Origin: an uncultured bacterium
GTDB taxonomy: Bacteria > Oederibacteriota > JAAXVQ01 > JAUVAV01
NCBI GenBank assembly: GCA_965371665.1
Contig: CBDUZI010000001.1
Coordinates: 9,411-73,410, forward strand
Reading direction: 5' to 3'
DNA: 64,000 nucleotides
This document shows positions 261-25,338 of this stretch, piece after piece (positions within the stretch are counted from its first letter, which is position 1; each line of letters opens with the position of its first letter). Both the position numbers and the translations under genes were made by a program. The notes beneath the pieces were generated by a model that had not been told where the DNA came from, searched no databases, and was given only the letters and a program-made list of their open reading frames with translations.

Positions 261-1571
261 CTATTTAGCCATTACTTTTTGTTTAGTCTTCCAAGCCTGT
301 TTAAGCACTTTTTCCGGATCAGACTTTCCGATTAAAATGGACTGCATGCCTTTTGAGATCACTTCCCGGACTTCATATTTTTCTTCCATTTTCAGGTCCG
401 GGGTAAGATTTCGCATGCCCTTGGCAAAATCCTTAAGCAAAGGATCAATCTCATCCATGGCTTGGAAATTCGCCGGTATCTGCTTGGATTCCTTGGCCAG
501 CCTGACTTGTTGCTCTTTGGACAAAAACCAGCGTAAAAAGGCTACTGCTTCCTCCGGATTTTCCGAATTGTTGGTCACCGCACAGCCTTTCCCCACCCCG
601 CCGATAAGGTACATGGGATGGGCCGCATCCTCCGGCTTGGGAAAAGGAAAAACACCCAATTCCAGTTCCGAATTCATCTCGAGATAGACATTTACCGCCC
701 AGGAACCATTCAACATCATGGCCGCCTTCTGATTGGCAAAATTGATTTCCGCGTCTTTGTTGGACATGGAAACCGCTCCGGGGTAGAGTATCTTTTTTTT
801 CTGCATATCCACCACGCGCTCGAGAACGCTTACACATCCCGGGTCAGTATAGGGCAAGGTTCCCGAGTATAACTTGCGCATTTTTTCTTCTCCCAGATAA
901 GTCCAGCAATAAGCATTAAAAAAGGTATAATCGATCCAAAGATCTCCGAAGCCCACCAGGAAGGGAGGAATGCCGGCACGGTTAAGCTGATCCCCGGCCT
1001 CCAGGAATTCGTCCCAGGTTGCCGGGGGTTTTTCGGGATCCAGACCGGCTTTTTTGAAAAGCTGCTTATTGTAATATATCTGAATATTCATTACGGAAAT
1101 CGGCACACCCCAGAAGGTATCGGGCTTAACCTCATAGGCATTGCCTTCCTCGTAATGAAACGCTTTTAAGGCCCGCGGAAAAAAGGTGTTACGCCAGGCA
1201 GAAGTATCCGCGTTCAATTTCCCGGTCATTTCATATATTCTTCCAGCCCGAATATAGCGGGCCAGAAGTTCTCCGCCTCCCGCCAAGCCAATGATATCCG
1301 GCAAGGTGTTGGCATTAGCCGAGGCTTGCAGCTTATTAAAGTAATCCGAACCGACCGGCGCCGAGAGTTCGAATGCCACCTTAACCCCGGTCTCTTCCTC
1401 ATATTCCTTGGCCATACTTTCAAACATGGATTGCTGATCCGCCCACCATTCCCAAAAAGTAATTTTTACCTCCCTCTTTTTCTCGGGGTGCTTCCCGCAC
1501 CCGAACAACAAGCCACCTACCATCAAACCGGTCAATGCCAATGTGAACAGTCTACTTCTTTGAAGCTTCAT
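261..1571 (-). CDS. sugar ABC transporter substrate-binding lipoprotein (extracellular solute-binding family 1)
   Basis: 436 aa with a signal peptide and an LLFGC lipobox-like motif. Overall similarity is to MalE-type sugar-binding proteins (reading the translation). The ATG at 1571-1569 overlaps the TGA of the upstream gene (ATGA). Confidence 0.85.
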   Translation of the reverse strand: MKLQRSRLFTLALTGLMVGGLLFGCGKHPEKKREVKITFWEWWADQQSMFESMAKEYEEETGVKVAFELSAPVGSDYFNKLQASANANTLPDIIGLAGGGELLARYIRAGRIYEMTGKLNADTSAWRNTFFPRALKAFHYEEGNAYEVKPDTFWGVPISVMNIQIYYNKQLFKKAGLDPEKPPATWDEFLEAGDQLNRAGIPPFLVGFGDLWIDYTFFNAYCWTYLGEEKMRKLYSGTLPYTDPGCVSVLERVVDMQKKKILYPGAVSMSNKDAEINFANQKAAMMLNGSWAVNVYLEMNSELELGVFPFPKPEDAAHPMYLIGGVGKGCAVTNNSENPEEAVAFLRWFLSKEQQVRLAKESKQIPANFQAMDEIDPLLKDFAKGMRNLTPDLKMEEKYEVREVISKGMQSILIGKSDPEKVLKQAWKTKQKVMAK

Positions 1572-4500
1572 TTAATTTCCTCCTTCCAATTATTATTGCC
1601 CACGATATAAAAAACGGTAAAATTCCGCTTTTCCCCAGGCTTTAGAGTGACTTCTTTGCCTAATAGTTCCATGGTATAAAAATTCGAGTCCTGCCAAACA
1701 CCGATTTGACCAATCTCCTCATGCTTGAATAATTGCATAAAATAATCTTTAGTAGCTTGGTTTAGCCCTACCACCCAACCCGCACGCGGTTCATAAGAAT
1801 CTTTATCGATTTTCGCAATAAATTTTTCAGTTACGAACTTGACTCTTTTCTTATTTTCAGGGTCAGAGATTGGCATAATCATCCTATGTTGCTCGTCCGC
1901 AAAATTATTTTTACCCGGAGCAAGATCAGGATGATTGAACCACTGATATTTCATGATGTCACCCGATAAGTTGGTAACTTGATAGTCTACCTGGAGGCGT
2001 CTTCCCTTAGCAGGTAGTATCATAGTTCTTTCGAGAAGGAGCCCCTTGCGGGTTTTAGTATACATTTTAACCGCTGCTTCATTCCCGTCATCAGTTACAA
2101 TCTCCGCCTCCCAATGATTATTCCAAACCACACCAGGCCAGCCCGATGGAAACCAGTCATTTATACCTCCGTATTCAATCCAGTCCCTATCACCTTTACG
2201 TTTCGCTATCTTAGGATAATTTTGATAAAGCATATTAGCACCGGTTTCGCGATGATAAAACGCCATTATTCTCCCGCCAATATCCTGAACGGCTTGAATT
2301 TCCACTTCGGCATTCGCTAAAATGACATCCTCGTCGCCACGCTTCATGATATCACCCATTAACACTTTAGCTTCCCCTTCAACCACAACTGGATATATTA
2401 ATTTAAATCGTTTTATTTCCTGGGGACATCTCAATTCAAAACCAAGGGTTTCTTTTCGAGCTTTCAAAGGCAATATGGAAAACTCCAACAGGACCTCCCC
2501 ACCTTTAGGAACGCTGAAGTTTAATTCTTGCGGTTCTACTTGCAAACCCTTTGAGGGGGTTAACATCACTGTTCCTTGGGTACTCATATTCCCACTAGCA
2601 ATCAGTCGAATAATACCTGTACTTTTCTTACCTTTCACCAGCACTCGTGGTCCTTCGCATGAAATAATTCGCCACACGGGCAAAACTTCAACTTTCTGAG
2701 GTTTAGACTTAAAAAAATTCTTCTTGACTCGAAAACTCGCAATAATGTCATAAGTTTTTTTCTTTTCAAGACTCGGTGGCAAAACAGAAAAAGTAAGTTT
2801 CTTTGTTTTCCCTGTATTTAGGTCCAACTTTTCTTCCTTTTTCCCTTTCCACGCTTTCGGCAGATTTAGCATCACCCTCCCTCTGACTTTTTCCGTGAAG
2901 TTATTCTTTACTTCCACTTCCAGTTTCGTCCATTTTCCCGCAGATACTGCTTGTTGGTCAGTCAGAATATCAACCTCAAAGGGCGAAATAACTTTAACAA
3001 TACCTTGGGATGAAACCGTTTTTACTTTTCTTCCCCGTGGAGTAATGAGTTCTCCTTTCAACCAGATAATATCTCCGGCTTCCGCGGTAGAAGGAATTTG
3101 AAAGGGGAAAACGGTTGAGATCACCTGGCCAGAAGCTAATTGGGGGATAGGACGCGTTTTCAACACGTGCTGAGGAGAAAGTGTGGCATAACCCGCCCGG
3201 GAATTAATCACAGGTTCGTTGCGTTTCACGAGCCATGCGGATAACGCTAAGCGAGCATTAGAAAGCACTTTCTGACTTAAATTCCTCGCTTCCAAACCAA
3301 TCTGAATCTCGGTATTAACTGTTGCACTTAACTTTGAAGCACGTACATTAATAAAATAATCCTGCTTATACTTTGCATTATATTCCATGACATATGTACT
3401 CGCTTCCGTAGCCGCCCCAACAGCATCCGGATAGAAGGAGATCGTCTGGGGTGTAGTTGCCACGAAGGTTATTGGTCTCCCCCCCTGCCGGACAGTAATG
3501 GCTTCATCGAATTTCCATTCCGCAGGACGCGGTAAGGTTAAGAGCGTTTTTTGATATTGCTGCAACTGGATAACCGTGATCCGGTTTTTTTCTCTTTCAA
3601 TGACGAGGTACTGGTCGCCGGTTAAATCAAATCCATAAAGACGGGAAAAGCGGCCGGCTAAAAAGGTCCCGGAATTATTTGTAGCTATAAAACCGTTTTT
3701 AGAAACTGTATGGTTTAATACCTCCAGTTCATGGACATTTGAAATATTCGCCAAAATACCCAGATCAGGATAGGCGGACCAGAAAATCCGGTTGGGCTCC
3801 GGCTGGGAATAATTCAGTAGTGGTTTGCCCACATATTTGGATACGACTCGTTTCTGTAATTGATCCGCCAGGGCAAACCATTTTTTTTGATTATGCCATC
3901 TAGAAACCCAGCGACCATTCAGCATATGGTAGCCATGGGCGAGATACCAGACTATTTTTTCATGACTCTCACAAAATACTTCATGGGCGAGGTCATGATG
4001 AAAAAAACAAACATGTTCGTGACCGAGATACTGCGCTATAGGAAAATATTCCCAGTTCCCTTCTCCGAAAAGGTTATTATAATCCACACTCTCCGGAACG
4101 GTAAAAGAAGCCAAGCCGCTGAAACCGCTCATCATGGGTATCAAGCGATCGTATCCCTGTTCAGTAAACAAAGGACCCAATTTCAGGTATGCTTCACAGT
4201 TTTCATACCAGGCTTGGCAATAACCGATCGGATTTTTTAATGTCGGATTTAAATCAAAATAAATAAAACGCGCACCAATCTGATCCAGGAATAATATATC
4301 GATACCATATTCTTTAAAAAATTTATTCGCAATATGATTCCCGGCTTTGACCACAGCGGGATGGCGAGGCGAAGCCGCCCAGCCTTTTCCGCCGGAAGGA
4401 TAGAATTCATATTTAAGATCATTCTTTAAATCCCGGCTCGCTATCTCTTCCGGACCACCTGCTCTTTCCAATGTCGGACTAATATTCCAGAAAGTCGGAT

Positions 4501-6784
4501 TGGTATAAGGCATAACCACCAGGTCATGCTTCTTGGCCAAAGCAATGCTTTTTTTAAAATCGGCATTCGTCCCAAAGGTCGGATCAACAGGCCAGAAGTC
4601 CGGCATATGCCGATCGAAGCCTTCCAACCACCAAGCTACAAAATGAACAATCGTCCCTTTGGGCAATTCTTTAAAATATTTATTAACATAACGAAAACTG
4701 CGATTCATATCCAAAGAAATTTTCAATAATACCCCTTGCCTAATTTTAGAAAATAAGGTTTTACCCAATTTATCAATCAAAAGCGGAGCCTTGGTCAGCT
4801 TATTGTCTTTTTTAAAACGTCGCAAAGCAGCCTCAACTTTTTCACCAAATACCATTCTCAACGGTTGGCCCTCCCAGCTGGTTTTCGGCTCAATATAGGT
4901 CGTCCAAACGTGTTCATAAACACCACGCCTGCCGCGAGCGTAACCAACATTAATTCGGGTCGATTCGATCGGCTTATCTGCCCAAAGCAGAAAAGAAGAA
5001 AATTGTCCCCCGTCAGTTAAAGACCAGTTGATAAAGTCTGAGAATAAAAAGGGATAAGTCGTTTTCCAACGCCGTTTATTCTTAAAAAATTGCTGATTAA
5101 ATGCTATTCCCATACGCCACGGTAAATAAAATCGTTCAAGTTTTCCATAATCAAAGCTCAACTTGGGCATTTCCACTCCAATAACCGTCTTATCCTCATG
5201 ATTTTGAAATTTGGCATACAAATCAAAGTAGTTATAGTTACTGAACACCAAATTGACAGCCATGACCGAAGAACCTCGTTGGGAGAGCAAACGAAGCGTA
5301 CGGCTACTCTCGATCCATCGATATGAAAATTTTGCTTCCTTATCTGCCAGAAACTCCTCGGAATTGAGAAAGGTTCCTTCTTTAAACATAATCCGCCAAA
5401 GGTAAGCATGTTCAAACCCTAATGAAACTCGGGAATTATTTATCCTATCTGTCAGAGATTCGAAAACCCCGGTTTTGCGGCTCAGAATCACCTGATAATA
5501 CTTATTTTGAATTGTAAGTTGATTTCCGGTTTCAGAAAATCCCGGGGGGCTACTCTCTTGGGAAACCGTTTGGGCCCTATGCTTCTCCCCAAAAACCTTT
5601 TGCAGGCCCCCTTGATCCAGAGATTTTTTTTGCTTTTTATAGGTAACCGGCAATGGTGCTTTAGTATAGGGTTGAGCGGCGATCAGAGACGGAAGCGGTT
5701 GAATTAACTGGGAGGGAACAAAGCCTGCCACCAATTTGATTTTTCTTTTCCCGATAAATTTGACCGAAGAAAACTCGATTTCGTGACCCCTATTAGGCTT
5801 TTTCTCATCCTCGGTTGTAACTCCTAATTTTAATATAAATGTCTGCGGACCTTTTAAATAATTAAACTTCCCAGCTAAATCATAAATATACCTCCCGGGT
5901 TTGGAAATGTACTCTAAGCGATGATACCCTCCGCGAAATTGAGGGCCACTAAAAATCACATACATATTGGCGGTTAAGCGACCAACCTTAATCTCTAATT
6001 TGGGATACTCCTCGAAATCGACTGTCAGCTCTTTGTTTACACAGCCATAGCACTGGTGCGGGTAATCGCCGATTAGCTTGATTTTTTCATCTTCGGTTTT
6101 TTGAAGATGAGCGCCTGAACTCCCGCCATTTTCAGCACGATTACTCCAACCTAAAACGCTGGTTTCCAAGGTGGCCTTTTCTAACGCCGCTTCCTCAGCT
6201 TCTGATAAACCCTTCTGGGCCACCACCTTTATCTTTTTTGCCCTGCTGGAGGATACCAATTTCAAACTGGAAAATGTAAAACTCAATCCTTTATTTGCAG
6301 GACGTTCGGAAGTGGCTATCCCTAATTCCAGACGTATTCTTCGGACCCCATTCAAGCCGGTTGCTTTTCGAATATTGTAAGCTCTTTTCCCGACCGCCTT
6401 GGTTCCTTTTTCGGGCTTAATATAATCATTTTTACTAAAACCATCCTCGATATTAGGATTTTGAATCACTAAATACCAAGCCGCATTACAAGCCGTAACT
6501 TCAATTTCCAAAATAGGATATTTATCCAGGTCCCATTCAATATTCTGATAAACCATACCGTAAAAGAGGCTCGTGGAGGTGCCGATCACCCGGGCCTGGT
6601 TTTCAAAGAGCTTAATCTTAGCGCCGGTTGGGGTGTCGTCAGGCCAGGCCACACGCCAACGTTCCAGCGATTTATGCTTGGCATCGAATAAAACATGAGC
6701 CTTAACCTTGGCCTCCACGTGATTAACCCCCCAGGCAGCGAATATAAAGGCAGTAAATATTATTCCACATAAAAAATTTTTCAT
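1568..6784 (-). CDS. large secreted multidomain protein (1738 aa) with two N-terminal beta-sandwich domains, a central TIM-barrel glycoside-hydrolase-like domain, and a C-terminal beta-rich domain
   Basis: The signal peptide is MKNFLCGIIFTAFIFAAWGVNHVEA. The N-terminal repeats carry the AAWYLVIQNP and DFEEYPKLEIKVGRL motifs also found in the giant protein and the 9612 gene. The central HFVAWWLEGFDRHMPDFWP...DILFLDQIGA region (roughly 3600-4650) looks like a TIM-barrel glycoside-hydrolase-like domain. The 4-nt overlap with the binding-protein gene implies cotranscription. Confidence 0.75.
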   Translation of the reverse strand: MKNFLCGIIFTAFIFAAWGVNHVEAKVKAHVLFDAKHKSLERWRVAWPDDTPTGAKIKLFENQARVIGTSTSLFYGMVYQNIEWDLDKYPILEIEVTACNAAWYLVIQNPNIEDGFSKNDYIKPEKGTKAVGKRAYNIRKATGLNGVRRIRLELGIATSERPANKGLSFTFSSLKLVSSSRAKKIKVVAQKGLSEAEEAALEKATLETSVLGWSNRAENGGSSGAHLQKTEDEKIKLIGDYPHQCYGCVNKELTVDFEEYPKLEIKVGRLTANMYVIFSGPQFRGGYHRLEYISKPGRYIYDLAGKFNYLKGPQTFILKLGVTTEDEKKPNRGHEIEFSSVKFIGKRKIKLVAGFVPSQLIQPLPSLIAAQPYTKAPLPVTYKKQKKSLDQGGLQKVFGEKHRAQTVSQESSPPGFSETGNQLTIQNKYYQVILSRKTGVFESLTDRINNSRVSLGFEHAYLWRIMFKEGTFLNSEEFLADKEAKFSYRWIESSRTLRLLSQRGSSVMAVNLVFSNYNYFDLYAKFQNHEDKTVIGVEMPKLSFDYGKLERFYLPWRMGIAFNQQFFKNKRRWKTTYPFLFSDFINWSLTDGGQFSSFLLWADKPIESTRINVGYARGRRGVYEHVWTTYIEPKTSWEGQPLRMVFGEKVEAALRRFKKDNKLTKAPLLIDKLGKTLFSKIRQGVLLKISLDMNRSFRYVNKYFKELPKGTIVHFVAWWLEGFDRHMPDFWPVDPTFGTNADFKKSIALAKKHDLVVMPYTNPTFWNISPTLERAGGPEEIASRDLKNDLKYEFYPSGGKGWAASPRHPAVVKAGNHIANKFFKEYGIDILFLDQIGARFIYFDLNPTLKNPIGYCQAWYENCEAYLKLGPLFTEQGYDRLIPMMSGFSGLASFTVPESVDYNNLFGEGNWEYFPIAQYLGHEHVCFFHHDLAHEVFCESHEKIVWYLAHGYHMLNGRWVSRWHNQKKWFALADQLQKRVVSKYVGKPLLNYSQPEPNRIFWSAYPDLGILANISNVHELEVLNHTVSKNGFIATNNSGTFLAGRFSRLYGFDLTGDQYLVIEREKNRITVIQLQQYQKTLLTLPRPAEWKFDEAITVRQGGRPITFVATTPQTISFYPDAVGAATEASTYVMEYNAKYKQDYFINVRASKLSATVNTEIQIGLEARNLSQKVLSNARLALSAWLVKRNEPVINSRAGYATLSPQHVLKTRPIPQLASGQVISTVFPFQIPSTAEAGDIIWLKGELITPRGRKVKTVSSQGIVKVISPFEVDILTDQQAVSAGKWTKLEVEVKNNFTEKVRGRVMLNLPKAWKGKKEEKLDLNTGKTKKLTFSVLPPSLEKKKTYDIIASFRVKKNFFKSKPQKVEVLPVWRIISCEGPRVLVKGKKSTGIIRLIASGNMSTQGTVMLTPSKGLQVEPQELNFSVPKGGEVLLEFSILPLKARKETLGFELRCPQEIKRFKLIYPVVVEGEAKVLMGDIMKRGDEDVILANAEVEIQAVQDIGGRIMAFYHRETGANMLYQNYPKIAKRKGDRDWIEYGGINDWFPSGWPGVVWNNHWEAEIVTDDGNEAAVKMYTKTRKGLLLERTMILPAKGRRLQVDYQVTNLSGDIMKYQWFNHPDLAPGKNNFADEQHRMIMPISDPENKKRVKFVTEKFIAKIDKDSYEPRAGWVVGLNQATKDYFMQLFKHEEIGQIGVWQDSNFYTMELLGKEVTLKPGEKRNFTVFYIVGNNNWKEEIK

Positions 6785-7175: not shown

Positions 7176-8129
7176 CTAATATACCAAACCCACCGTAAAG
7201 AATTGAGTACCTCCAAAGCTGTCTGAGCTCCAAGTGGTAACCCGATAGGCATAGTCCAAACGAAAAGTGCACACCCCTATTGCTGTCCGAACACCGACGC
7301 CAAAGGTCATGCCTTCTGTCCCATCCGGGGCCAGGGCATACCCCAGGCGGGCCGCAAAAACACCGGCATAAAAAAATTCGCCTCCCATATGCAAGCTGGT
7401 TTCGGATTCCAGAGTCTGTTCAATATCCAGCGCCACAAAAAATTTTTCCAGTAAGCCTGACAACAAATCATATTTTGCGGAAAGAACAATACGCAGGGGC
7501 AGTGGATCCGCCTCATCGATGAATTTCAGGGGCAGGCCGAGATTTTTTACCGCCAGGCCGACCAGAGCCTCGGGCGCGGCTTCCCAGAGAACGCCGATGT
7601 CCGCCGCAAGGGTATTCGCGGAATATTCTCCCAGCGTGGAATTGAGAAACTTCAAGTTCAACCCGCAGGAGAAACCATCCAAAAATTTTGAGACCGGCCG
7701 GCCCAGGGAGATGATACCCAAAATATCTCTAACCTCAACGGACGACTGGCTGGTGCCGGCATCATTTAAAGACGGCATCCCGTGGTAGACAAAGGTAACT
7801 CCCAGTACTCCGAGGTGTGAGAACGGCATGGCAAAATTCAAGATCTCGGAATAGTCTTCCGCAATTCCGGTCTGATGCGTAAAAAGCCCGCTCACCCTCT
7901 GGACGGATTGCAAACCCGCCGGATTGTAAAATATAATCCCTGGATCGCCTGTTAGGGTACCACCAGCCCCACCCAAGGCACTGGCCCGGGCTGTGTTAGC
8001 CGTCACCAGCAACAGTCCTCCAGATGTATCGGCCGCATCGGCCTGCACCGCCAGGCAGATAACCGACATGCCGGCCACCACCAGACCAGTCGTTAGCATC
8101 AACATTTGAGAAATTCTTTTTGGGCTCAT
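7176..8129 (-). CDS. FadL/PorV-like outer-membrane beta-barrel protein
   Basis: The likely true start is MSPKRISQMLMLTTGLVVAGMSVICLAVQA (signal peptide); the ORF track extends it to 8234. The motif TLTGDPGIIFYNPAGL resembles the N-terminal FadL/OMPP1 hallmark (..ADDA...NPAxL). The protein ends in an aromatic residue (..TVGLVY). Its start ATG overlaps the TGA of the 8126..9601 gene. Confidence 0.65.
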   Translation of the reverse strand: MSPKRISQMLMLTTGLVVAGMSVICLAVQADAADTSGGLLLVTANTARASALGGAGGTLTGDPGIIFYNPAGLQSVQRVSGLFTHQTGIAEDYSEILNFAMPFSHLGVLGVTFVYHGMPSLNDAGTSQSSVEVRDILGIISLGRPVSKFLDGFSCGLNLKFLNSTLGEYSANTLAADIGVLWEAAPEALVGLAVKNLGLPLKFIDEADPLPLRIVLSAKYDLLSGLLEKFFVALDIEQTLESETSLHMGGEFFYAGVFAARLGYALAPDGTEGMTFGVGVRTAIGVCTFRLDYAYRVTTWSSDSFGGTQFFTVGLVY

Positions 8130-9601
8130 TTTACTACCGCTACCCGAATATTCTTCTGGAATCGATTGCTTTCGAGCCTGATGATATAGACACCGCTGGC
8201 GACCCAGTCGCCGTTGGCATTCTTGCCATCCCACCGCACCTGGTCATCCACGGCTCCGGAAGCCGGGCCGTCGACTAAGGTACGTATTTTGCGGCCGGCT
8301 AAATTGTAAACCGTGATCCTCACCCGGCTGGCGTCTTCCGCACCGTAATGAATGGTTAATGACCCTTGCTTGGGCCGGAAGATGTTGGCAGAAGGCCGGA
8401 GTTCATTCACACCAACGATGGGCGTAGGGGTAGCGGTTGGCGGTTGGCTGGTTATCTCCAAGCAGTCGAATCCGAGCTTATCGCCATCGGCACTGCCGAT
8501 CCAGATAACAACGCGGAAAGTCTTTATCCCCGACCAACCGGTCGCAGAGGCATAATCGTAAACCAGAACCCCGGGCTGGGTAAGATTCGGAGACAAGGCG
8601 TGATAGTCTGTGCCATCATAAACATTGAGTAATTGGATTGTGGCCTGCGCGCTGCCTTCAGGCTCCACGGAATCCACCGTGGCAATGAAATACGGAAAGG
8701 CCGTTACATCCGTGGTAATAGGAGCGCTTTCCATCTTGTGCTCGCCCGTACCGGTAAAGGTCACCCAGCCGATGCCGGCTTGCGCATCCAGTTGCACGTT
8801 CGTCAACGTCCAATCGCTGGGAGGATCAAAATCCTCCACCCAGCCATTATTGACTCCAGTCGGTGTCGATGTTGGAGTATAAGATGTTGGAGTATAAGTA
8901 GCACTGTTTGTCGAAGTAGGTGTTATAGTTGGCGTATCTGTCATAGTCCAATCCGGAGTCTGAGTGGATGTGGGGCTCTTGGTTGGGCTGTCCGTAGGTG
9001 AACAGACCATAGTTTCCGTGGGAGTGGGTGATACTGTCGGCGTTGCGGTGGGGGTATAATCCACGTCATAAATGCGGACCGAATCAAAAGTAGCATAACA
9101 CCACTGCGGGCCGTACACTTTAAGCACAAAATAATAGAGCTGCGTTCCACTTTCTCCAGTAACCGAAGAAATATTATAGGAATAGGTGCCGGGTACGGTG
9201 GGAGTGCCAAACACAAAATATTCCCAGGTGGGCTTCTGCAGGGCTATTTCCACCTTGGTCGTACCCGCCTGGATGTCGCTGATGACGACCTCCATCCTGT
9301 TATATGTGCTTAAATCCACTGATTTAGTAATCGATGTGACATATCCGGCTCCGTCCATGCCGGTGACGGTAATATCTGCGTAACTGTCGCTCTGGCTATA
9401 AACCATCTCTGCCGGATTCGGCCCGCCGCCCCGGTCCGTGACATCGAACCAGCTTCCGGGCTTTTCTCCGGGCGTGCCGCCGGTAAAATCATCCATCCAG
9501 AGATTTGTTGCCTGGACCAAAGCAGCTGCACTCAGGCAAAGCCACCCGGCAGCCAGCCCTATCCGGCTGACCCGCAAAAAAGTACGTCCCCCTCTATGCA
9601 T
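8126..9601 (-). CDS. secreted protein with two beta domains, a Thr/Pro-rich linker and a C-terminal FlgD-Ig-like / T9SS-type sorting domain
   Basis: Signal peptide LAAGWLCLSAAALVQA. A TPTATPTVSPTPTET... low-complexity linker. The C-terminus VYNLAGRKIRTLVDG...GVYIIRLESNRFQKNIRVAVVK is typical of FlgD-like and Por-secretion C-terminal domains. Confidence 0.7.
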   Translation of the reverse strand: MHRGGRTFLRVSRIGLAAGWLCLSAAALVQATNLWMDDFTGGTPGEKPGSWFDVTDRGGGPNPAEMVYSQSDSYADITVTGMDGAGYVTSITKSVDLSTYNRMEVVISDIQAGTTKVEIALQKPTWEYFVFGTPTVPGTYSYNISSVTGESGTQLYYFVLKVYGPQWCYATFDSVRIYDVDYTPTATPTVSPTPTETMVCSPTDSPTKSPTSTQTPDWTMTDTPTITPTSTNSATYTPTSYTPTSTPTGVNNGWVEDFDPPSDWTLTNVQLDAQAGIGWVTFTGTGEHKMESAPITTDVTAFPYFIATVDSVEPEGSAQATIQLLNVYDGTDYHALSPNLTQPGVLVYDYASATGWSGIKTFRVVIWIGSADGDKLGFDCLEITSQPPTATPTPIVGVNELRPSANIFRPKQGSLTIHYGAEDASRVRITVYNLAGRKIRTLVDGPASGAVDDQVRWDGKNANGDWVASGVYIIRLESNRFQKNIRVAVVK

Positions 9602-9611
9602 ACGCCATCCC

Positions 9612-12600
9612 CTAGAAAGTTACGGTTACCTGGGCCCAGACAGCGTTCTGACCCCAGTTTTTTTCATTTTCAAAAGGAAAATAAACTTTGTTCATTTCGC
9701 CATGCAGCCGTATGTAACCCCCGGCTAAATCCCGCAGCAGACCCACGGCCAGTTTGTCGCGTATCTCCTCCGCTTGTCCGTGTTTAGACATGCAGGAAAT
9801 TTCGCGACCGAAATCTAAGGAAAATTTATATTCATTGAAAAACAGCACCGAGTTTTGCAGGTAAAGCCCGTGGAAGATAGGTACATCCCAGTTCTCGTCC
9901 GGTTCATACCCCTGCGGCAAATAATAGGTATTGTGAATCGGGGCACTCGCATTGGCCTGCCTCCCGCCGAACCGACCGATATAGACTGGCTGCATGGCAA
10001 AGACCTCTTCCAGCAGATAATGCTTATAGCGGATATCCACCGTAGCTAAGTTGCCGTAATACCTCCTGCGTTCTCTATCCAGCTCCTGGTCCAGCCGGAA
10101 GCGATCCAAGAGAGTCATTTTCAATCCAAAGGGAGCATTGTATATAACTTTCAGCTCAGGAGTCACGGTTAAATTGTCGGTGTAATCCAAGGTGAGCGGG
10201 ATTTCCTCGTCATTGGCTGTGTAAAGGGCGTACTGATCCGAGATATCGTCTCGGATTCTCGCCCCATAAGCGCCGACTTCAAACACCCAATCGTCAATAT
10301 CTGTATTCTTATACTTTAGGGTCAAGGATACGGATTGGTTTCTGCCAGGCTTGGAAAGCCGTTTGATATAATGTCCGTCCAAGCGTATTTCCATATTAGA
10401 AGCATAAGTACCTTCCAACACCTGGCGAGGAATAATCGCCGAAAAGGAATATCCTCTTTGATCGCGACGATAAGGATAATCCGGCTCGTGGTCGTTTTCC
10501 CGGCTGTCAAGGATACCGTTGTGATTCAAATCCTCGCTTTCGTGGAAAAGGTAATCCTGCGGAATGTACAGACCGTTGACGTATTCCTGACTAGGCTGGC
10601 CCAGATTGTAAAAATCACCGAAAATGACCCCGTTTTTTTCCGTATCCCAGTCCGGAAGAAGCGCACAACTGTCATTATCCTCCACCACGTCATAATTCAG
10701 CAGCTTGGTGGAATAATCCTTAGACAAGTTGAAATAACTAGCCTTTAAAAGCGCACCCTCGATCCCGCGGGAAAGGGTAACGAAATAGGCATTGGCCATA
10801 CGGTTCACGCGGTCGCCAGTATAAGCTTGATTGTGCGCGATGGAAACTGCGTATTCGGCTGCCAGGTTGATGCCTAAAAGCTGGCCGCGTAAATCCGCTC
10901 CGAGTATGGAGCACGCCTGCGTACCTTCGTCCCTAAAGGTCCCGCTTTTCAGCCTCTCCAGCTGGTCTGCCGTAAGGGTATAGTCAACATCCACTACAGG
11001 CTCATGCGTTGTAAATGTGCTGTAACTTTCAATTAGCCGCCAGTTTTCGCCGTCCGAAGAAATACTGAAATCGATAGTGCCATCATCGGGGATATGCCAA
11101 CAGCTAAGCTCCAGGTGTCCGGAAACGGCTTGTATCTGGGAAGGTAGCACGCGTCCTCCGCTGTTGGCGCCTGTGGTTAGAACCAAGGGAACTCTTAAGA
11201 CCAGGTAACCGCCCTCATTGATACCCCGGGCGGCATTGTTCGGGTCGGTGTCGATCAGGTCTATGTAGGTGTTACTTTGGTCGGAGACGTATGCTATACT
11301 ACTGTCATCAACATCCGGGCTGAAATCCGGTGATATTGGATTTCCGGCAGAATTGGCGATGGTCATGTAATTAGTGTCTTCTGTCTTGAAATAAAGATTG
11401 GATTCATTGGGATGGGTGGTGTTGGTGGTATGATTCTCGATTTTAACGTAAACCGAAGGTACGAAATTTTGATAAACCTCGGGCGGCTCGTCTGGGCCCA
11501 TGAACAGGTTAGTATCCATCTCGCCGTTGCTTTTGGATAAATTGACGGCCGAAAGACCAAGCTGCACCGTGCCGATCCGGATGGAGAAATTCTTGGCCGC
11601 ACGCAGGCCGGTCATGAAAACGTTGGTTTTATTATAATCGCTACTGGAGGATGACAGCCGGGTTCCAAACAGCTTGAAACATATGTCCCCAAGCTTCGGC
11701 TGCCAGAGAATGCCTCGAAAAGTAGAGGCTTTCTTAAAAGTCAGGTCCGTGAACAGTGGTTCGTAAACCGTACCGAGCTGGGCCATATTTCCGATGTATA
11801 AATCCTGATATCTCAACAAGCCATAGTCGAGCTGGGGAGTAAGATAGCGGCCAGCTGGTTCTTCCCAGCGGACGTTATTTTTCTCGTTGATTATGTCGTA
11901 GCCCAAAGAGGCCCAGATATCGACATTTTCAAAAGGGTGAATATAGGAAATTAAATAAAATTTTTGCGTAATTTCATTGAACCCGATATCCTTCAAAGGG
12001 ATACCCCAGCGGTTCAGTCCGGTCCAGTCCTCGTTTTTGGCCACGCCGTCCAGCCACATAGCACGATAGGTTTGATAGGCTACGCCAGAAATTTTGAGAA
12101 TATCCGCATCTTTGGCAGGTGCAATGGCCTCGGGTTTCACTCCCGGGATTGGTAGCATAATCCCCTGGGCTGTCGCCATCTTGCTGGAGAAGCCGATGGC
12201 ATTTAAGGCAACTTGAGTGCCAGCGCCTTCCAGAAAAAACTCAATAAAAAAAGTCTGCTCAGTTTTCCAGCCTGTGAGATCAGGCACATTGGCCATATAG
12301 ACGCCGGCTCGGGAGAAGCGGGGAGTAATTATACGAAAATTATCCGGATTGCGGGCATGAATCAAATGCACCCTTACTTTTCCACGTTCTAATTCACGTC
12401 CCAATTCGATCTCCAAATAGGGATACTTGGAAAAATCCACGGTCAAAGGTTTTTTCGGAGACAAAAATCTGCCATATGTCACCTTTTCTTTTAATTTCAG
12501 CAGGATTTCCCCACCCTTTTGAACCTTTGCAATGGTATTCAAGCCCTTTTCAATTGAATTATCACGCCAGCCATTCAAACCTTTTGCCCAATTCTCAAAA

Positions 12601-13226
12601 TACTTATAAGATTTTGATTTATCTCCTCTAAAATCCTTTTTAACTTTTCGAGCCCCTTTGGCCAATAGACTTTTAGCGACTTTGGATTTTTCAGACTTTG
12701 CCAAACTCTGCGCAGGCTTATTGACCAGTGCCAGACCTTCCCCGATTCGCAACTGGGAAACCTTTGCCTCAGCACCAGAGCCTCCCAACCAGAGGGTGAC
12801 CCAGAAATCTTTAATTTCTTTCCACGGCGTTGATTTCATGATGCTCACGCTGTAGATTCCGGGTTGGGTAATTCCATTCAAAATCTTATACCCGGCATAA
12901 GGCCGATGCGCGTCCATAAGCTCCACGTCCATCGAGCCGTCCTCACTTATCTCATCTATAATAATCTGAAGAACCAAGCCAGAGGTAATATTCATGGCAA
13001 TGGCTTTTTCAGGAGTCATAACCTTACCATACTCGAAGCTGCCCGGCACAGAGATCAAGGCCTGTTTCTCATGCCTCTCCAGCAGCGCATGGAAGTCGGG
13101 ATTGGTCCGGTTATCCCGCCAACCCTTAAACTCGGCTTGGTAAAAATCCTGTACCGCCAACGAGGGAATAACCGATATCACTAAGGCTAGCAGCAGAAAA
13201 CATGTGCCGAAACGAAACTGCTTCAT
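9612..13226 (-). CDS. large outer-membrane protein (1204 aa) with two N-terminal 'F-x-G/D-W-R-D-N' beta-sandwich domains plus a large C-terminal beta-barrel
   Basis: Signal peptide MKQFRFGTCFLLLALVISVIPSLA. Repeats DFYQAEFKGWRDNRTNPDF and YFENWAKGLNGWRDNSIEKG, with DFSKYPYLEIELGRE. The long C-terminal region has alternating hydrophobic beta-strand character and a terminal Phe (..AQVTVTF), typical of outer-membrane barrels. Confidence 0.7.
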   Translation of the reverse strand: MKQFRFGTCFLLLALVISVIPSLAVQDFYQAEFKGWRDNRTNPDFHALLERHEKQALISVPGSFEYGKVMTPEKAIAMNITSGLVLQIIIDEISEDGSMDVELMDAHRPYAGYKILNGITQPGIYSVSIMKSTPWKEIKDFWVTLWLGGSGAEAKVSQLRIGEGLALVNKPAQSLAKSEKSKVAKSLLAKGARKVKKDFRGDKSKSYKYFENWAKGLNGWRDNSIEKGLNTIAKVQKGGEILLKLKEKVTYGRFLSPKKPLTVDFSKYPYLEIELGRELERGKVRVHLIHARNPDNFRIITPRFSRAGVYMANVPDLTGWKTEQTFFIEFFLEGAGTQVALNAIGFSSKMATAQGIMLPIPGVKPEAIAPAKDADILKISGVAYQTYRAMWLDGVAKNEDWTGLNRWGIPLKDIGFNEITQKFYLISYIHPFENVDIWASLGYDIINEKNNVRWEEPAGRYLTPQLDYGLLRYQDLYIGNMAQLGTVYEPLFTDLTFKKASTFRGILWQPKLGDICFKLFGTRLSSSSSDYNKTNVFMTGLRAAKNFSIRIGTVQLGLSAVNLSKSNGEMDTNLFMGPDEPPEVYQNFVPSVYVKIENHTTNTTHPNESNLYFKTEDTNYMTIANSAGNPISPDFSPDVDDSSIAYVSDQSNTYIDLIDTDPNNAARGINEGGYLVLRVPLVLTTGANSGGRVLPSQIQAVSGHLELSCWHIPDDGTIDFSISSDGENWRLIESYSTFTTHEPVVDVDYTLTADQLERLKSGTFRDEGTQACSILGADLRGQLLGINLAAEYAVSIAHNQAYTGDRVNRMANAYFVTLSRGIEGALLKASYFNLSKDYSTKLLNYDVVEDNDSCALLPDWDTEKNGVIFGDFYNLGQPSQEYVNGLYIPQDYLFHESEDLNHNGILDSRENDHEPDYPYRRDQRGYSFSAIIPRQVLEGTYASNMEIRLDGHYIKRLSKPGRNQSVSLTLKYKNTDIDDWVFEVGAYGARIRDDISDQYALYTANDEEIPLTLDYTDNLTVTPELKVIYNAPFGLKMTLLDRFRLDQELDRERRRYYGNLATVDIRYKHYLLEEVFAMQPVYIGRFGGRQANASAPIHNTYYLPQGYEPDENWDVPIFHGLYLQNSVLFFNEYKFSLDFGREISCMSKHGQAEEIRDKLAVGLLRDLAGGYIRLHGEMNKVYFPFENEKNWGQNAVWAQVTVTF

Positions 13227-13272: not shown

Positions 13273-14313
13273 TTAATTTCGGATGTGAATATATTTGATG
13301 CCCGCCCCGGCCTCGGTCTCCGGAGCTCCGGTAGTTCCCATCCAAATTTGAATCCAAAAAACTTTAGCGCCTCTCCATTTGGTCTTTTCGTTAATATTTA
13401 CCGTATATACCCCAGGGCGGGTAACAAAAGGCATGAGAGTGTAGTTAGTGTAAGGTGCCTGCGCAAGCATAAGTTCAACTTTTACTTTGCTCGTCCCCAT
13501 ATCCCCAAAAGCAATCTCAAATTTTGTGGAAGGGGTAATCTTGGCTTTAATCCCGCTTGAATCTGACATCAACTTACAATATTTTCTGCCAGGAATTATT
13601 TTTAGCCGCGGAACATCTCCTTCAAAATTCAACTCACTCCCGAATTCCGGGTCGGTTTCAGCCGTTCTCCACCCCCCAACTCCATTCCTGAAATCTTCAA
13701 AAAAGATACTGTTTGGGGGCATAGGCGCAAACTTTTTCAAGGTAAACGCTTTTATGGCCGCCAGCTTTCTTTGTTTTTCTAAAATATTAGCATCCTGAAA
13801 AAAAACCTCCTTGATAATCACACTTTTTTTTTCACCTTCCAGCCAGACCTTGATCCACATGCTGGTAACACCCTTCCAGCCTGTCAACTCATGAACATTT
13901 GCTTTATATTCTCCTGATTTTCCTTGAAGTTTGGCAACCCGATAGGAATTATAAGGTTCATAAGCATGCATTAAATAAACCGTTGCTATTGTGTCCGGAG
14001 CAATTCGGTCAACCTTGATGACAATCTCGGTTTTCCGGGTAATATTAATGGTAATCGGGTCGGCTTTTGACATCGCTTTACCGTAGGCCACGTTAGGGGT
14101 CGAAATCTTTAGTCTTCTTCCCTGTACCTGTACCTGCGTATTAAAACCAAGATCAGTAGAATTATCCCGCCAATTTTTAAAGTCTTCCTGATAGACAATC
14201 CCTAACCCTTCATTATCATTACTTTTTTTTGCGAATGAAGTCCGAAGAAGTAAGAAGGAAAAAAGCATCACTATAATAATAGTCGGACAAAAAAACATTT
14301 TTGAAGGGTGCAT
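13273..14313 (-). CDS. secreted protein with two tandem copies of the F-x-D/N-W-R-D beta-sandwich domain
   Basis: The likely start is MHPSKMFFCPTIIIVMLFSFLLLRTSFA; the ORF track starts 12 codons earlier. Domains begin YQEDFKNWRDNSTDLGF and FFEDFRNGVGGWRTAETDPEF and end ..W(K/R)G..(V/I)W(I/M)..W(L/M)(E/G). Confidence 0.7.
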   Translation of the reverse strand: MHPSKMFFCPTIIIVMLFSFLLLRTSFAKKSNDNEGLGIVYQEDFKNWRDNSTDLGFNTQVQVQGRRLKISTPNVAYGKAMSKADPITINITRKTEIVIKVDRIAPDTIATVYLMHAYEPYNSYRVAKLQGKSGEYKANVHELTGWKGVTSMWIKVWLEGEKKSVIIKEVFFQDANILEKQRKLAAIKAFTLKKFAPMPPNSIFFEDFRNGVGGWRTAETDPEFGSELNFEGDVPRLKIIPGRKYCKLMSDSSGIKAKITPSTKFEIAFGDMGTSKVKVELMLAQAPYTNYTLMPFVTRPGVYTVNINEKTKWRGAKVFWIQIWMGTTGAPETEAGAGIKYIHIRN

Positions 14314-14441
14314 ACAAATTTCCTTTCTCAAAACTAAATTTGGAGACAAACCGACTATTAGGGAGTTGTCCCGAATGGTACTAACTTAAGAGTTTTATTT
14401 GGCATTATCACTAATTTACGTAATTAAATTTAAAATCACAA

Positions 14442-14629: not shown

Positions 14630-14689
14630 AACCGCGTAAAGAAAATACTCTTGTTTCCGAGAAATTCTTCTTTTTCCCGGAAACAAGAG
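14630..14689 (-). terminator. Rho-independent terminator of the 14706..15329 gene
   Basis: The sense strand reads CTCTTGTTTCCGGG-(14-nt loop)-CTCGGAAACAAGAG followed by TATTTTCTTT, just 3' of the stop at 14706. Confidence 0.55.
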
Positions 14690-14705: not shown

Positions 14706-15329
14706 TTATTTTTTTACTTTTTCAGCGCTTTTTACTTTTACCTTACTTTTTACTTTGTCACTTTTCTTCTTTATTCTACTTTTCTTCTTAATTTTACTTT
14801 TTCTTCCTTTTTCCTTTGCGACTATTTTTTTGCCATCTGTAATGCATACATCCGATATCTTCGCAACGGGATTTTCCTCCCCGCCTATCCAGATTTCTAT
14901 CCAAAAAGTATGTTCCTCCTGCCCCGGCCATGGCGTCTTTTCAGCCAGCTTCGCGGTATAAACTCCTTTGTCACTTGCTTCGGCAATGAGTTTATGGGAA
15001 TCATAAGGGTCACCAGCTGTCATAAGTTTAACTGTAATGGAGCCTTGGGAAATATCATCAAGCAATTTCAGGGAAAGCTCTGTGTTTTCTTCGATATTAA
15101 TTGTAATTCCAGCTTCAGATGACATAACCTTTCCAATTTTTTTCTCAGGAATAGCAGTTATAATCCCGATTTCATTCTTCTCATCCAATTCAAACTTGGC
15201 CTTAAATCCTGGATTGGTACTCTCATCGCGCCAATCGGAGAAATCATCCTTATACAAATTTTTTCCCTGCACAGAAGCAACGATACCCAGAGCGAATACA
15301 GCCGTTAAAAATACTTTTAAAAATTTCAT
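14706..15329 (-). CDS. small secreted protein with one F-x-D-W-R-D beta-sandwich domain and a lysine-rich C-terminal tail
   Basis: Signal peptide MKFLKVFLTAVFALGIVASVQG. Domain YKDDFSDWRDESTNPGF...TFWIEIWIGGEENP. Tail KEKGRKSKIKKKSRIKKKSDKVKSKVKVKSAEKVKK. Confidence 0.7.
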   Translation of the reverse strand: MKFLKVFLTAVFALGIVASVQGKNLYKDDFSDWRDESTNPGFKAKFELDEKNEIGIITAIPEKKIGKVMSSEAGITINIEENTELSLKLLDDISQGSITVKLMTAGDPYDSHKLIAEASDKGVYTAKLAEKTPWPGQEEHTFWIEIWIGGEENPVAKISDVCITDGKKIVAKEKGRKSKIKKKSRIKKKSDKVKSKVKVKSAEKVKK

Positions 15330-16618: not shown

Positions 16619-16658
16619 ACTCTTTCCCCCTGCTTTATAAAAAACCGGAACCAAACTT

Positions 16659-16700
16659 AACCGCAGATGCACGCCGATTAAGAATCTTTTTTAAATCCCC
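16659..16700 (-). promoter_or_regulatory. conserved upstream element B (copy 1): GCAGATGCACGCCGATTAA(..)AATCTTTTTT
   Basis: This is the same half-site pair as element A in the opposite orientation. Similar blocks are at 20491-20540 and 22436-22480. It is followed by C7 and C6 homopolymer tracts (16697-16713). Confidence 0.4.
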
Positions 16701-16764: not shown

Positions 16765-16792
16765 ATTTATCTGCGTTCATCGGCGGTTAAAG
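16765..16792 (-). promoter_or_regulatory. element A core (atttATCTGCGttcATCGGCGGttaaag)
   Basis: Identical core to 7081-7105, 18641-18666 and 22528-22550. It lies about 150 nt upstream of the 15614..16618 start and overlaps the stop of the 16787..18565 gene. Confidence 0.35.
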
Positions 16793-19626: not shown

Positions 19627-19719
19627 AAACCCCCTCTACTTAGACAGGATTAACAGGATTTTTTAAGGCATTTTTTTTATTCATTACCATCCGCTTTATC
19701 CTGTCTAAATTGCCTTTTA

Positions 19720-20478: not shown

Positions 20479-20490
20479 AAAAAGCCTTTT

Positions 20491-20612
20491 CAGCCGCCGA
20501 TGCACGCCGATTAACGCTGATTAAAAATCTTTTTTCATAAATATCTGCGTTTATCGGCGTCCATCGGCGGTTATCCGTATTTATCTTTGTTCATCGGCGG
20601 TTAATTTTCTCC
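20491..20612 (-). promoter_or_regulatory. composite upstream element B (copy 2) plus an element A array with four CATCGGCG half-sites
   Basis: gccgccGATGCACGCCGATtaacgctgattaaaaatcttttttcataaat ATCTGCGtttATCGGCGtccATCGGCGGttatccgtatttatctttgttcATCGGCGGttaa. It overlaps the 3' end of the 20581 gene. Confidence 0.45.
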
Positions 20613-23495: not shown

Positions 23496-24344
23496 TTATC
23501 CCTTCACCGCCCCGGCTGTAAGTCCTTTAATAATATATTTGGATAGGAAAAAATAAATAATTAATAAAGGAATAGTCGCAATCGTGAGACCGGCCATAAG
23601 TAAGGCATAATCCGTAAGGTGTTCTCCCTGAAATACCATGAGTCCCCGTTGAATCGGCATCAGGGCCCGGTTATTAATAATAATCAGCGCCAAAAGAAAC
23701 TCATTCCATACCGCCAGGATAGTAAATATGGCTACCGTGGCAATCGCCGGGGTAGACAAGGGCAGAAATATCCGCCAATATAAGTTGAATTTGTTGCACC
23801 CGTCAATAATTGCCGCCTCTTCTATCTCCTTAGGCACATTTTCAAAGAAAGTTTTAAGAATAAAAATTGCCAGGGCTAACCCGGCATTAGTATAGGGAAG
23901 AATCAGTCCCAAGCGGGTATCGGCTAACCCTAATTTAATTAATAAAATATAAAGCGGAATAAAAGCGCCGGGTATGGGTATCATGAGCGAGCCAATAAAC
24001 AATAAGTATAAAAGGTTATGTCCCACAAATTTAAAGCGAGCAAAGGCATATGCCGCCATGGAGGCCAGGAATAGTACTAAACCCAGAGTAATGGCAGCAT
24101 AAAGAATGCTATTAAAAAAATAAATACCAAACGAGCCGACTTCCCAGGCAGTTATATAATTAGCGAATTTCCAAGCTTGCGGAATCAGGGAAATATTAGA
24201 AAATACTTCATTCTTGTCCTTGAGGGATGAAGCGAACATCCAGAGCAGTGGAAATACACTCGCAAACGCCCATAAAATAAGCGTACTATGTACGGGAATA
24301 TTGGCAAACGCCTTACGCCTGATTCTCATATCTTCCAGCCACAT
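23496..24344 (-). CDS. carbohydrate ABC transporter permease (MalG-like, 6 TM)
   Basis: EAA-loop motif EAAIIDGCNKFNLYWRIFLPLSTPAIATVAIFT and typical TM topology. Confidence 0.9.
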   Translation of the reverse strand: MWLEDMRIRRKAFANIPVHSTLILWAFASVFPLLWMFASSLKDKNEVFSNISLIPQAWKFANYITAWEVGSFGIYFFNSILYAAITLGLVLFLASMAAYAFARFKFVGHNLLYLLFIGSLMIPIPGAFIPLYILLIKLGLADTRLGLILPYTNAGLALAIFILKTFFENVPKEIEEAAIIDGCNKFNLYWRIFLPLSTPAIATVAIFTILAVWNEFLLALIIINNRALMPIQRGLMVFQGEHLTDYALLMAGLTIATIPLLIIYFFLSKYIIKGLTAGAVKG

Positions 24345-24435
24345 CCTTTCATACTTAATTCGCCGTTTACCTTAGGTTTGCATTCTTGCAGCCTGTAAAG
24401 AAGTTTATATTTATTCCGCTCCAGATAATTTTTTT

Positions 24436-25338
24436 TCAACGAGTGTCTAATCTTTTACTAAGTTTCAATTGCCCCAGCGATAAAATCAGAAGCATAATCC
24501 CCAGTATAACGGCTTGAGCCGTAGCATAACCAAAATGGTATGACTCAAAAGCCATCTTATAGATACGCGTTACCGGCACCTCGGTATGGAATCCGGGACC
24601 ACCATTGGTCATGGCAATTACCAGGGGAAAAGTCTGCATAGTTCCCAACAGGGTTAAAATGAAGACTAAAGTCGCAACGGGTATCAGAGAGGGAATCGTA
24701 ACATGAAGAAATCTTTTCCAGGCATTAGCGCCGTCAACCTGGGCCGCCTCATACAATTCAACCGGTATTACTTGCAGACCCGCTAAAAACAACAAAAAAG
24801 CATTACCCAAACCCTGCCAGCTCTGAACAATCGCCACTGCAATCAGCGCAGTATTTGGATCCGCCAGCCAGGGACGGGTAATATTTTCCAGGCCAATAAG
24901 GCGCAGCCAATAATTTAAAATCCCATATTCATAATTAAATATGAAACGCCAAATCAGGCCAACTACAATCAGCGAAAGTACCGGAGGAATATAGAATATC
25001 AGCCGGTAAAAATTTTTGGCACGAATATCCCGGTCAACCAAAACTGCTAGAAATAATGCCAGGATATTCTGTCCCACCAGGGCAAAAACCGCGATAAAGA
25101 GCGCATGACCTACTGAATTCCACCAGACTTTATTTTGGGTAAAAATATCAACATAATTATTCAGTCCTACCCAAATAGGGTTGGAGGATATTCCATCCCA
25201 TTCGAAAAAACTGATTCTAAAGGTTTCCAGAAACGGATAAAGTCCGAAAATCAGAAAAATAGTCAGCGCCGGTAGCACAAAAAAGTAGGCTTCCCAGTTC
25301 CGCTTGGTTTCTTTCCAGTACAAATTCCATCCCGGCAT
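24436..25338 (-). CDS. carbohydrate ABC transporter permease (MalF-like)
   Basis: EAA motif YEAAQVDGANAWKRFLHVTIPSLIP and multiple TM helices. Confidence 0.9.
   Translation of the reverse strand: MPGWNLYWKETKRNWEAYFFVLPALTIFLIFGLYPFLETFRISFFEWDGISSNPIWVGLNNYVDIFTQNKVWWNSVGHALFIAVFALVGQNILALFLAVLVDRDIRAKNFYRLIFYIPPVLSLIVVGLIWRFIFNYEYGILNYWLRLIGLENITRPWLADPNTALIAVAIVQSWQGLGNAFLLFLAGLQVIPVELYEAAQVDGANAWKRFLHVTIPSLIPVATLVFILTLLGTMQTFPLVIAMTNGGPGFHTEVPVTRIYKMAFESYHFGYATAQAVILGIMLLILSLGQLKLSKRLDTR

Follow-up and report, generated by a model that had tools for sequence, protein, structure and literature searches.

A large outer-membrane β-barrel protein with appended β-sandwich domains in a candidate glycan-uptake operon of an uncultured bacterium

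The barrel gene and its predicted protein

We analysed a 64,000-nucleotide stretch of DNA from an uncultured Oederibacteriota bacterium (positions 9,411 to 73,410 of contig CBDUZI010000001.1, assembly GCA_965371665.1; hereafter the window) and concentrated on a gene for a putative outer-membrane β-barrel protein. The gene is a 1204-codon open reading frame (ORF) that begins with ATG, occupies 9612..13226 and ends with a stop codon at 9612-9614; a GGAGG Shine-Dalgarno sequence lies ~8 nt 5' of the ATG. An earlier note on this DNA had listed the ORF and left its strand unstated: translation of the plus strand meets many stops, which places the gene on the minus strand, as are all genes and protein segments of the window described below. 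The gene is real because public assemblies contain an identical 1204-residue protein (P0001) and nine full-length homologs with 44-55% identity. Two of these ten sequences bear the names 'candidate division FCPU426 bacterium' and 'bacterium'.

Residues 1-24 (13155..13226) read as a Sec-type signal peptide, MKQFRFGTCFLLLALVISVIPSLA/VQ, cleaved at SLA/VQ. It has no lipobox, which excludes a lipoprotein, and equivalent AxA-type signal peptides are found in all ten family members. The C-terminus, AVWAQVTVTF, has hydrophobic residues at positions -1, -3, -5, -7 and -9, the β-signal pattern of the β-barrel assembly machinery (BAM). The alternating pattern and the terminal phenylalanine, on which the earlier note had remarked, are conserved in 10/10 members. 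Judged from its sequence, the protein thus has what is expected of an outer-membrane β-barrel, a Sec signal peptide and an aromatic-ended C-terminal β-signal.

The mature N-terminus consists of two copies of a β-sandwich domain that recurs in the surrounding gene cluster, as the note had described. Copy 1 spans residues 25-166 (12729..13154; domain hidden Markov model (HMM) E=9e-64; AlphaFold2 predicted local distance difference test (pLDDT) ~73-87) and copy 2 residues 207-351 (12174..12608; E=1.2e-60), and the two match each other at E=1e-11. They are joined by a Lys-rich, low-complexity linker (residues 167-206, 12609..12728) recognized in the sequence and modelled with a pLDDT <50. The tandem of N-terminal domains shows weak Foldseek similarity to a pair of family 22 carbohydrate-binding modules (CBMs), CBM22-CBM22 (4xup, E=1e-3).

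Two AlphaFold2 predictions address the remainder of the chain. The first, of the mature full-length protein from 10 sequences, had a pLDDT of 50, with N-terminal domain 1 confident, domain 2 less so and an internal β-sandwich of moderate quality. The second, of residues 360-1204 from a 44-sequence alignment that includes remote relatives, yielded a transmembrane β-barrel (pLDDT 70.7, predicted TM-score 0.67). The barrel that the earlier note had put forward as an inference is now backed by structure prediction and by fold searches, and a soluble β-helix, the kind of non-barrel fold that it had named as speaking against a barrel, is excluded by this result. DSSP assigns long antiparallel strands to the second model, of which we counted 22 from residue 480 onwards by reading back from the C-terminal strand and using loop lengths and parity. 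Turns of 2-5 residues lie on one face, which we take to be periplasmic, and long loops on the opposite one; hydropathy alternates across the family in most modelled strands. The model is therefore consistent with a closed antiparallel transmembrane barrel with dyad-hydrophobic strands. A barrel of this size is far beyond the 12 strands of a classical autotransporter, whose layout also combines an N-terminal passenger with a C-terminal barrel, and we rejected that assignment, although the N-terminal domains may have such a passenger topology.

Ahead of the confidently modelled strands lies a poorly modelled segment (residues 352-479, 11790..12173; pLDDT <50 in both models) that may contribute ~4 more strands or form a lumen or plug segment. 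It comprises long hairpins in the first model and, as read from the sequence, dyad-hydrophobic stretches such as VDIWASLGYDII; counting these, the modelled barrel plausibly totals 26 strands. Strands 1-5 (residues 480-566, 11529..11789) contain the invariant motif YEPLFTDLTFKK...RG.LW.P and are followed by an inserted β-sandwich of ~200 residues (567-770, 10917..11528; pLDDT 65-87) with an SxDGxxW motif. A profile of the insertion weakly matches a CBM32 module (4a42, E=0.023), and from the parity of the strands and the lengths of the loops it is predicted to sit in a loop on the cell surface. Strands 6-9 (residues 771-834, 10725..10916) are modelled with pLDDT values up to 97 and strong dyad hydrophobicity. 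They lead into an acidic loop of 88 residues (835-922, 10461..10724) marked by VEDND...PDWD and by DLNHNGILDSRENDHEPDYPYRRDQRG (DxNxNGxxDxxE), whose Asp, Asn and Glu columns are invariant across both the close family and its remote superfamily. DxDxDG-type motifs are known to bind calcium; by analogy with these and with the metal sites in the pore of the SlpA barrel, the loop probably binds calcium too. Strands 10-22 (residues 923-1204, 9615..10460), delineated by DSSP, pLDDT and dyad hydrophobicity, complete the barrel with the AVWAQVTVTF terminus.

A Foldseek search with the model of residues 360-1204 placed Deinococcus radiodurans SlpA at the top (E=4e-10 to 2e-9, with TM-scores of ~0.2), followed by MtrB, ushers and TonB-dependent transporters at ~1e-5. 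SprA, the top match (E=2e-9) of the poor full-length model, disappeared with the better one and is unreliable. With PapC/FimD ushers and the 24-26-stranded LptD/MtrB class, the protein has in common its barrel size, N-terminal soluble domains and, for ushers, a β-sandwich that interrupts the series of barrel strands, as the plug does there. However, it matches none of these families, its insertion is ~200 residues long and predicted to be extracellular, and no chaperone, LptE or cytochrome partner gene lies directly beside it. The similarity to the usher, LptD and BamA class is a generic barrel similarity.

Sequence searches gave a single Pfam match, SlpA_C over residues 770-928, at 27.2 bits against a cut-off of 35. 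It is found in 9/10 family members, reaches 35.1-46.4 bits in six relatives and always spans profile positions ~198-342 of 656, mostly the acidic-motif region. Pfam and NCBIfam scans detected no Plug (PF07715), TonB_dep_Rec (PF00593), Usher, PapC_N/C, LptD, MtrB, POTRA, Bac_surface_Ag or SprA domain (E≤0.1 for Plug and TonB_dep_Rec). A loose TonB-box heptad pattern, a weak test given the degeneracy of the motif, had no match within residues 1-500 of any of the 10 family members. These scans bear out the note's remark that no plug or TonB-box motif is recognizable.

Gene neighbourhood and the barrel superfamily

The barrel gene lies within a gene cluster. Directly upstream, 13273..14349 encodes a secreted protein of 358 residues with two copies of the cluster domain (E=1e-19 to 1e-22), which precedes the barrel in all related loci. 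Further upstream, 14706..15329 encodes a secreted 207-residue protein with one copy (E=1e-26) and a Lys-rich tail. Downstream of the barrel, 8126..9601 encodes a secreted protein that has two weak domain copies, linkers rich in Thr and Pro, and a C-terminal domain (CTD) like the type-A CTD of type IX secretion systems (T9SS), recognized by TIGR04183 (27.4 bits, cut-off 23) and FlgD_ig (30.1 bits, cut-off 27); its position is kept in all related loci. Next comes a small outer-membrane barrel of the PorV/PorQ family (7176..8234; NF033709 117.5 bits, cut-off 90) with a probable true start near 8129 that would give ~317 residues, the orthologs in related loci having 314. Beyond it, 1568..6784 encodes a secreted protein of 1738 residues with N-terminal β-sandwiches and a DUF6259 region, probably a glycan-active enzyme, which is conserved downstream of the barrel module and also lies beside a remote barrel relative, P0014. 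A lipoprotein is encoded at 261..1571, the sugar-binding protein of a carbohydrate ATP-binding cassette (ABC) importer (SBP_bac_1 E=2e-38; carbohydrate binding-protein families in NCBIfam). Two ABC permeases with BPD_transp_1 domains are encoded at 23496..25338 (23496-24344 and 24436-25338); their counterparts in relatives stand between the PorV-like and DUF6259 genes.

The gap from the 358-residue gene to the barrel is 46 nt and that from the barrel to the CTD gene 10 nt, and the CTD and PorV/PorQ genes overlap by 4 nt. A terminator-like hairpin with a 17-bp stem lies at 14648-14689, right after the 207-residue gene on the minus strand. Because of the short gaps and this hairpin, we suggest that the 358-residue gene, the barrel, the CTD protein and the PorV/PorQ barrel form one transcription unit starting at the 358-residue gene. 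The Lys richness of the barrel linker (12609-12728) and of the tail of the 207-residue protein (14706-14815) is not kept in the family consensus.

Weak copies of the cluster domain also occur in the products of 15614-16672 and 1568-6784, and copy 2 of the barrel matches the N-terminal domain of the DUF6259 protein at E=6.5e-6. The two N-terminal domains of the barrel are thus of the same type as those in five neighbouring proteins, and they are most simply placed in the periplasm. That a single β-sandwich type recurs in the barrel, in the surface CTD protein, in two small secreted proteins and in the enzyme would suit proteins that bind one ligand or join in one assembly.

We compared the window with ten related loci from eight genomes or assemblies whose barrels have 45-57% identity to ours. 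Wherever the contig reaches far enough, the order is an OmpA-fused PorV-like barrel, a tetratricopeptide repeat (TPR) protein, a ~300-residue protein, ExbB, ExbD, ExbD and TonB, then a gap of 250-410 nt, a one-domain protein of ~180 residues, a two-domain protein of ~350 residues and the barrel. The barrel is followed by a FlgD_ig/T9SS-like CTD protein of ~615-686 residues, a PorV/PorQ barrel of 314 residues, two ABC permeases, a DUF6259 protein of ~1710-1765 residues and an SBP_bac_1 protein. A core made up of the barrel, its CTD-protein neighbour and both domain-only proteins is present in 10/10 loci and the PorV/PorQ gene in 9/10, the contig of the tenth (L009) stopping inside the CTD-protein gene. 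Two BPD_transp_1 permeases and the DUF6259 protein are found in all nine loci that reach that far, SBP_bac_1 in all four that extend beyond them, and the ExbB/ExbD/ExbD/TonB_C block just upstream in all seven with sufficient sequence. The window holds the same genes, but without the TonB block and with the permeases further upstream, beside a giant ORF.

The close family is rare. A profile search across 1.84 billion representatives returned 52 matches at E≤1e-3, only six of which reach E≤1e-30; the close family numbers ~10 sequences, from candidate division FCPU426. The other 46 representative clusters are remote relatives (hmmsearch E=1e-22 to 1e-4), proteins of ~660-1060 residues from metagenome-assembled genomes of Gemmatimonadota and Latescibacterota, all annotated as 'hypothetical'. 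An alignment of the two groups with hhalign gave a probability of 100% and E=3.3e-42 over 545 columns, and the HMM matches are reciprocal. The remote relatives have in common the barrel core, the inserted sandwich and the motifs FTPLTL...G.RWD (the counterpart of the YEPLFTDLTFKK...RG.LW.P motif), DDSP.D, VDDNDD.D..PD and D.NNNG..D.REND..PDYPY. These profile comparisons indicate that the FCPU426 barrel is a branch of an unnamed superfamily of ~900-residue barrels from Latescibacterota and Gemmatimonadota.

No Pfam domain was detected in ten remote relatives. A homolog search with their alignment found 20 unnamed proteins, again devoid of Pfam domains, and one with a mixed alignment recovered the close family only. 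Searches of the PDB by phmmer and with profiles, using the protein, the family and the remote superfamily, gave no meaningful match. As a kind, the outer-membrane β-barrel transport protein is known; this superfamily has no Pfam, NCBIfam or literature name. In the libraries and literature searched, the family, its architecture and its fixed partnership with CTD proteins and PorV/PorQ-type barrels outside Bacteroidota are undescribed. Remote members occur as two or three tandem paralogs in L004 (1021, 908 and 896 residues), L007, L014, L015 and L016, and the FCPU426 family is single-copy with extra N-terminal domains.

Across the superfamily, the barrels are regularly encoded beside CTD-tailed, often CBM-bearing proteins, and several loci add PorV-type barrels. 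The barrel in L007 adjoins another barrel paralog and a DUF6259 enzyme, together with a CBM30/CHU_C protein and a gene of PorV type, and the one in L004 lies beside CTD proteins with F5/8-type-C domains. That in L008 is part of a cluster with glycoamylase/GH144-like and GH3 (glycoside hydrolase family 3) enzymes and a LacI regulator, which also encodes CTD proteins with CBM11/CBM30 and a fusion of CBM30 to a PorV-like barrel. No TonB-dependent receptor is encoded in these three loci. In the Latescibacterota loci (L013-L016), tandem barrel paralogs are flanked by CHU_C/FlgD_ig proteins, a SurA-like peptidyl-prolyl isomerase (PPIase) and a TPR protein.

The fusion protein in L008 (13104-14606 of a JGI 3300033141 contig) has 500 residues, matches the PorV HMM at E=3e-28 and is a second case of a carbohydrate-binding-type domain placed N-terminal to an outer-membrane barrel. 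Beside the Latescibacterota barrels, we also observed proteins of ~300-400 residues ending in SWG(R)[IV]K..F (L013 161-1066, L014 69-1286, L015 11381-12316 and L016 11222-12157); the one checked has no Pfam match.

Candidate functions of the barrel

We tentatively favour, with a probability of about 0.45, a role for the barrel as the outer-membrane glycan-uptake channel of a SusC-less carbohydrate operon resembling a polysaccharide utilization locus. We do so because synteny in FCPU426 joins the barrel to sugar ABC permeases, a DUF6259 enzyme and a sugar-binding protein, and because these genes recur in the window, where the binding protein is of a carbohydrate type. Other grounds are the remote relatives encoded beside GH3, GH144-like, LacI, CBM11/CBM30/F5-8C and DUF6259 proteins in the absence of a TonB-dependent receptor, the SxDGxxW motif and weak CBM32 match of the inserted domain, the β-sandwich type common to the barrel and to the other extracytoplasmic proteins of the operon, and the TonB system just upstream in relatives.

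According to this model, the protein would be exported by Sec and its C-terminal ~850 residues inserted by BAM as a large barrel, with the 88-residue acidic loop folding back to narrow the pore, as the metal-binding insertions of SlpA do. The CTD-tailed protein, which the neighbouring PorV/PorQ-type barrel would keep at the surface, would capture the glycan together with the barrel's own surface domain, and oligosaccharides would cross the outer membrane through the barrel. In the periplasm they would encounter the domain-only proteins and the DUF6259 enzyme as well as the sugar-binding lipoprotein before the two-permease ABC importer carries them into the cell. The DUF6259 protein has no PDB or NCBIfam match that would name a substrate, and our searches found no useful literature on DUF6259, DUF5696 or PorV2.

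The comparison with SusC and other TonB-dependent transporters illustrates what such a channel would have in common with known systems. Our barrel occupies the transporter slot of a glycan locus, with surface glycan-binding partners, N-terminal β-sandwich extensions, 22 confidently modelled strands and, in relatives, ExbBD-TonB directly upstream. Unlike those transporters, it has no Plug, TonB_dep_Rec or TonB box and carries a large inserted domain and an acidic loop. The locus differs as well: no SusD is present, a T9SS-like CTD and a PorV/PorQ barrel replace the lipid anchor of the surface partner, and import further downstream relies on a binding protein and an ABC system.

Several observations weigh against an uptake channel. 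The sequence lacks a recognizable plug, TonB box and TonB_dep_Rec signature, and the TonB cluster, 250-410 nt away in relatives and absent from the window, may reflect inherited gene order. The CBM32 match of the inserted domain is marginal, a profile of the N-terminal domains returned only noise from the PDB with no sequence match to a known CBM, and the DUF6259 protein is, from its sequence, a probable enzyme. The ~120 low-confidence residues between 352 and 479 leave the modelled strand count and the presence of a plug uncertain. The barrels of Latescibacterota, which have no glycoside hydrolases within 10 kb, suit secretion or anchoring at least as well. We infer the direction of transport, and likewise the class of substrate, how the appended domains are oriented, the contacts between partners and the energy coupling.

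Export or anchoring is the main alternative, suggested by the proteins around the barrels, and we regard it as possible, though less likely than uptake. Here the barrel and the PorV/PorQ-type barrel would translocate the CTD protein or hold it at the surface; they may also serve the domain-only proteins and the DUF6259 enzyme, and would amount to a compact, SprA-independent counterpart, outside Bacteroidota, of the T9SS translocon or its attachment complex. To our knowledge, the export route of CTD-like proteins in other phyla is unsettled. Literature abstracts present the T9SS as a system of Bacteroidota only. The most constant neighbour throughout the superfamily (FCPU426, L004, L007, L008 and L013-L016) is a protein with a FlgD_ig, CHU_C or Por_Secre_tail CTD; PorV/PorQ-family barrels are also encoded in the FCPU426 loci and L007, and L008 has one fused to CBM30. 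The SurA-like PPIase and large TPR protein of the Latescibacterota loci are of types that the title of PDB entry 8gl8 also gives for the extended SprA translocon. The Latescibacterota contexts suit export or anchoring better than uptake. Like SprA/Sov, our protein is a large barrel associated, by genomic adjacency, with a PorV-family barrel and a TIGR04183-positive protein, and related loci contain PPIase and TPR proteins. However, it is half the size of SprA (1204 versus ~2400 residues), has at most 26 strands compared with 36, and shows weak structural similarity and no sequence similarity to SprA or to any T9SS component in Pfam, NCBIfam and PDB searches; GldKLMN/PorKLMN are missing from the loci examined. 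Moreover, linkage between the FCPU426 operon and an ABC importer for sugars is tight, its adjoining motor genes are ExbBD-TonB and not GldLM/PorLM, and a CBM-like insertion at the surface has no obvious role in a translocon. A reading that merges both activities, which we hold to be unlikely, is that the barrel superfamily and PorV/PorQ-type barrels constitute a SprA-independent outer-membrane machine that exports or docks FlgD_ig, CHU_C and type-A-like CTD proteins outside Bacteroidota (in FCPU426, Latescibacterota and Gemmatimonadota). In FCPU426 it would be built into a glycan capture and uptake operon, perhaps coupling display with import.

The only Pfam match of the family raises the question of an abundant, SlpA-like envelope scaffold or general large-pore porin whose appended sandwiches organize a surface layer or the envelope, with no operon-specific role. 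SlpA (Deinococcus-Thermus; PF21620; PDB 7zgx, 8ae1 and 8agd) is also a very large single-chain barrel with acidic, metal-type pore insertions and a C-terminal β-signal, and it has a possible scaffold role; its barrel of 30 strands is joined to a coiled-coil and SLH (surface layer homology) stalk, which ties the outer membrane to peptidoglycan (PMC9388160). Our protein, by contrast, has neither SLH domain nor trimeric coiled-coil stalk, the parts that connect membrane and cell wall, and its first 351 residues form two β-sandwiches and a Lys-rich linker. Its strand count is probably lower (22-26 versus 28-30), the sub-threshold match covers only ~145 of the 656 profile positions, largely in the acidic-motif region, phmmer and profile searches found none of the SlpA chains in the PDB, and the Foldseek TM-scores are low. 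The gene belongs to a conserved, substrate-specific operon for sugar uptake, and the two or three paralogs per glycan locus in remote relatives are atypical of a housekeeping scaffold. We therefore judge a scaffold function improbable; any kinship of the protein with the SlpA barrel is distant at best, and it should not be called an SlpA. The earlier note had also proposed an exporter or anchor for part of a giant protein of 12,729 residues encoded at 25663-63852. This ORF lies ~12 kb upstream on the strand of the barrel gene, and β-sandwich repeats of its product (residues ~500-825) are distantly akin to the cluster domain, the link being the N-terminal domains of the product of the DUF6259 gene (E=1e-5). 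However, no giant ORF is present in the examined flanks, which extend up to 10 kb to each side, in any of the ten loci compared, an HMM of the barrel's N-terminal repeats has no direct match to the giant protein, and many transmembrane stretches are predicted from the sequence of the giant itself, which makes this proposal barely credible.

The passage of complex glycans across the outer membrane is poorly understood outside Bacteroidota, as is the handling of T9SS-like CTD proteins there. The FCPU426 operon covers the whole way from a TonB system to the ABC importer for sugars. If the barrel is an uptake channel, uncultivated phyla of soil and sediment would have a SusC-independent way to import glycans; as a platform for CTD proteins, it would extend type IX-like surface display beyond Bacteroidota. 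Either way, the loci delimit a defined set of six to ten genes.

Upstream of the barrel gene, the window encodes a 592-residue protein (16787-18565) in which a PorV/PorQ-family barrel (NF033709 67 bits, cut-off 90; UPF0164 24.6 bits) is connected by a coiled-coil linker to a peptidoglycan-binding domain of OmpA type, and an equivalent OmpA protein of ~580 residues heads the related loci. Between this gene and the permeases lie genes for four secreted proteins of unassigned function (18676-22316), among which we detected an Fn3_5 domain (20581-21567), a weak pilin-like match (21651-22316) and a weak T9SS CTD match (18676-19626).

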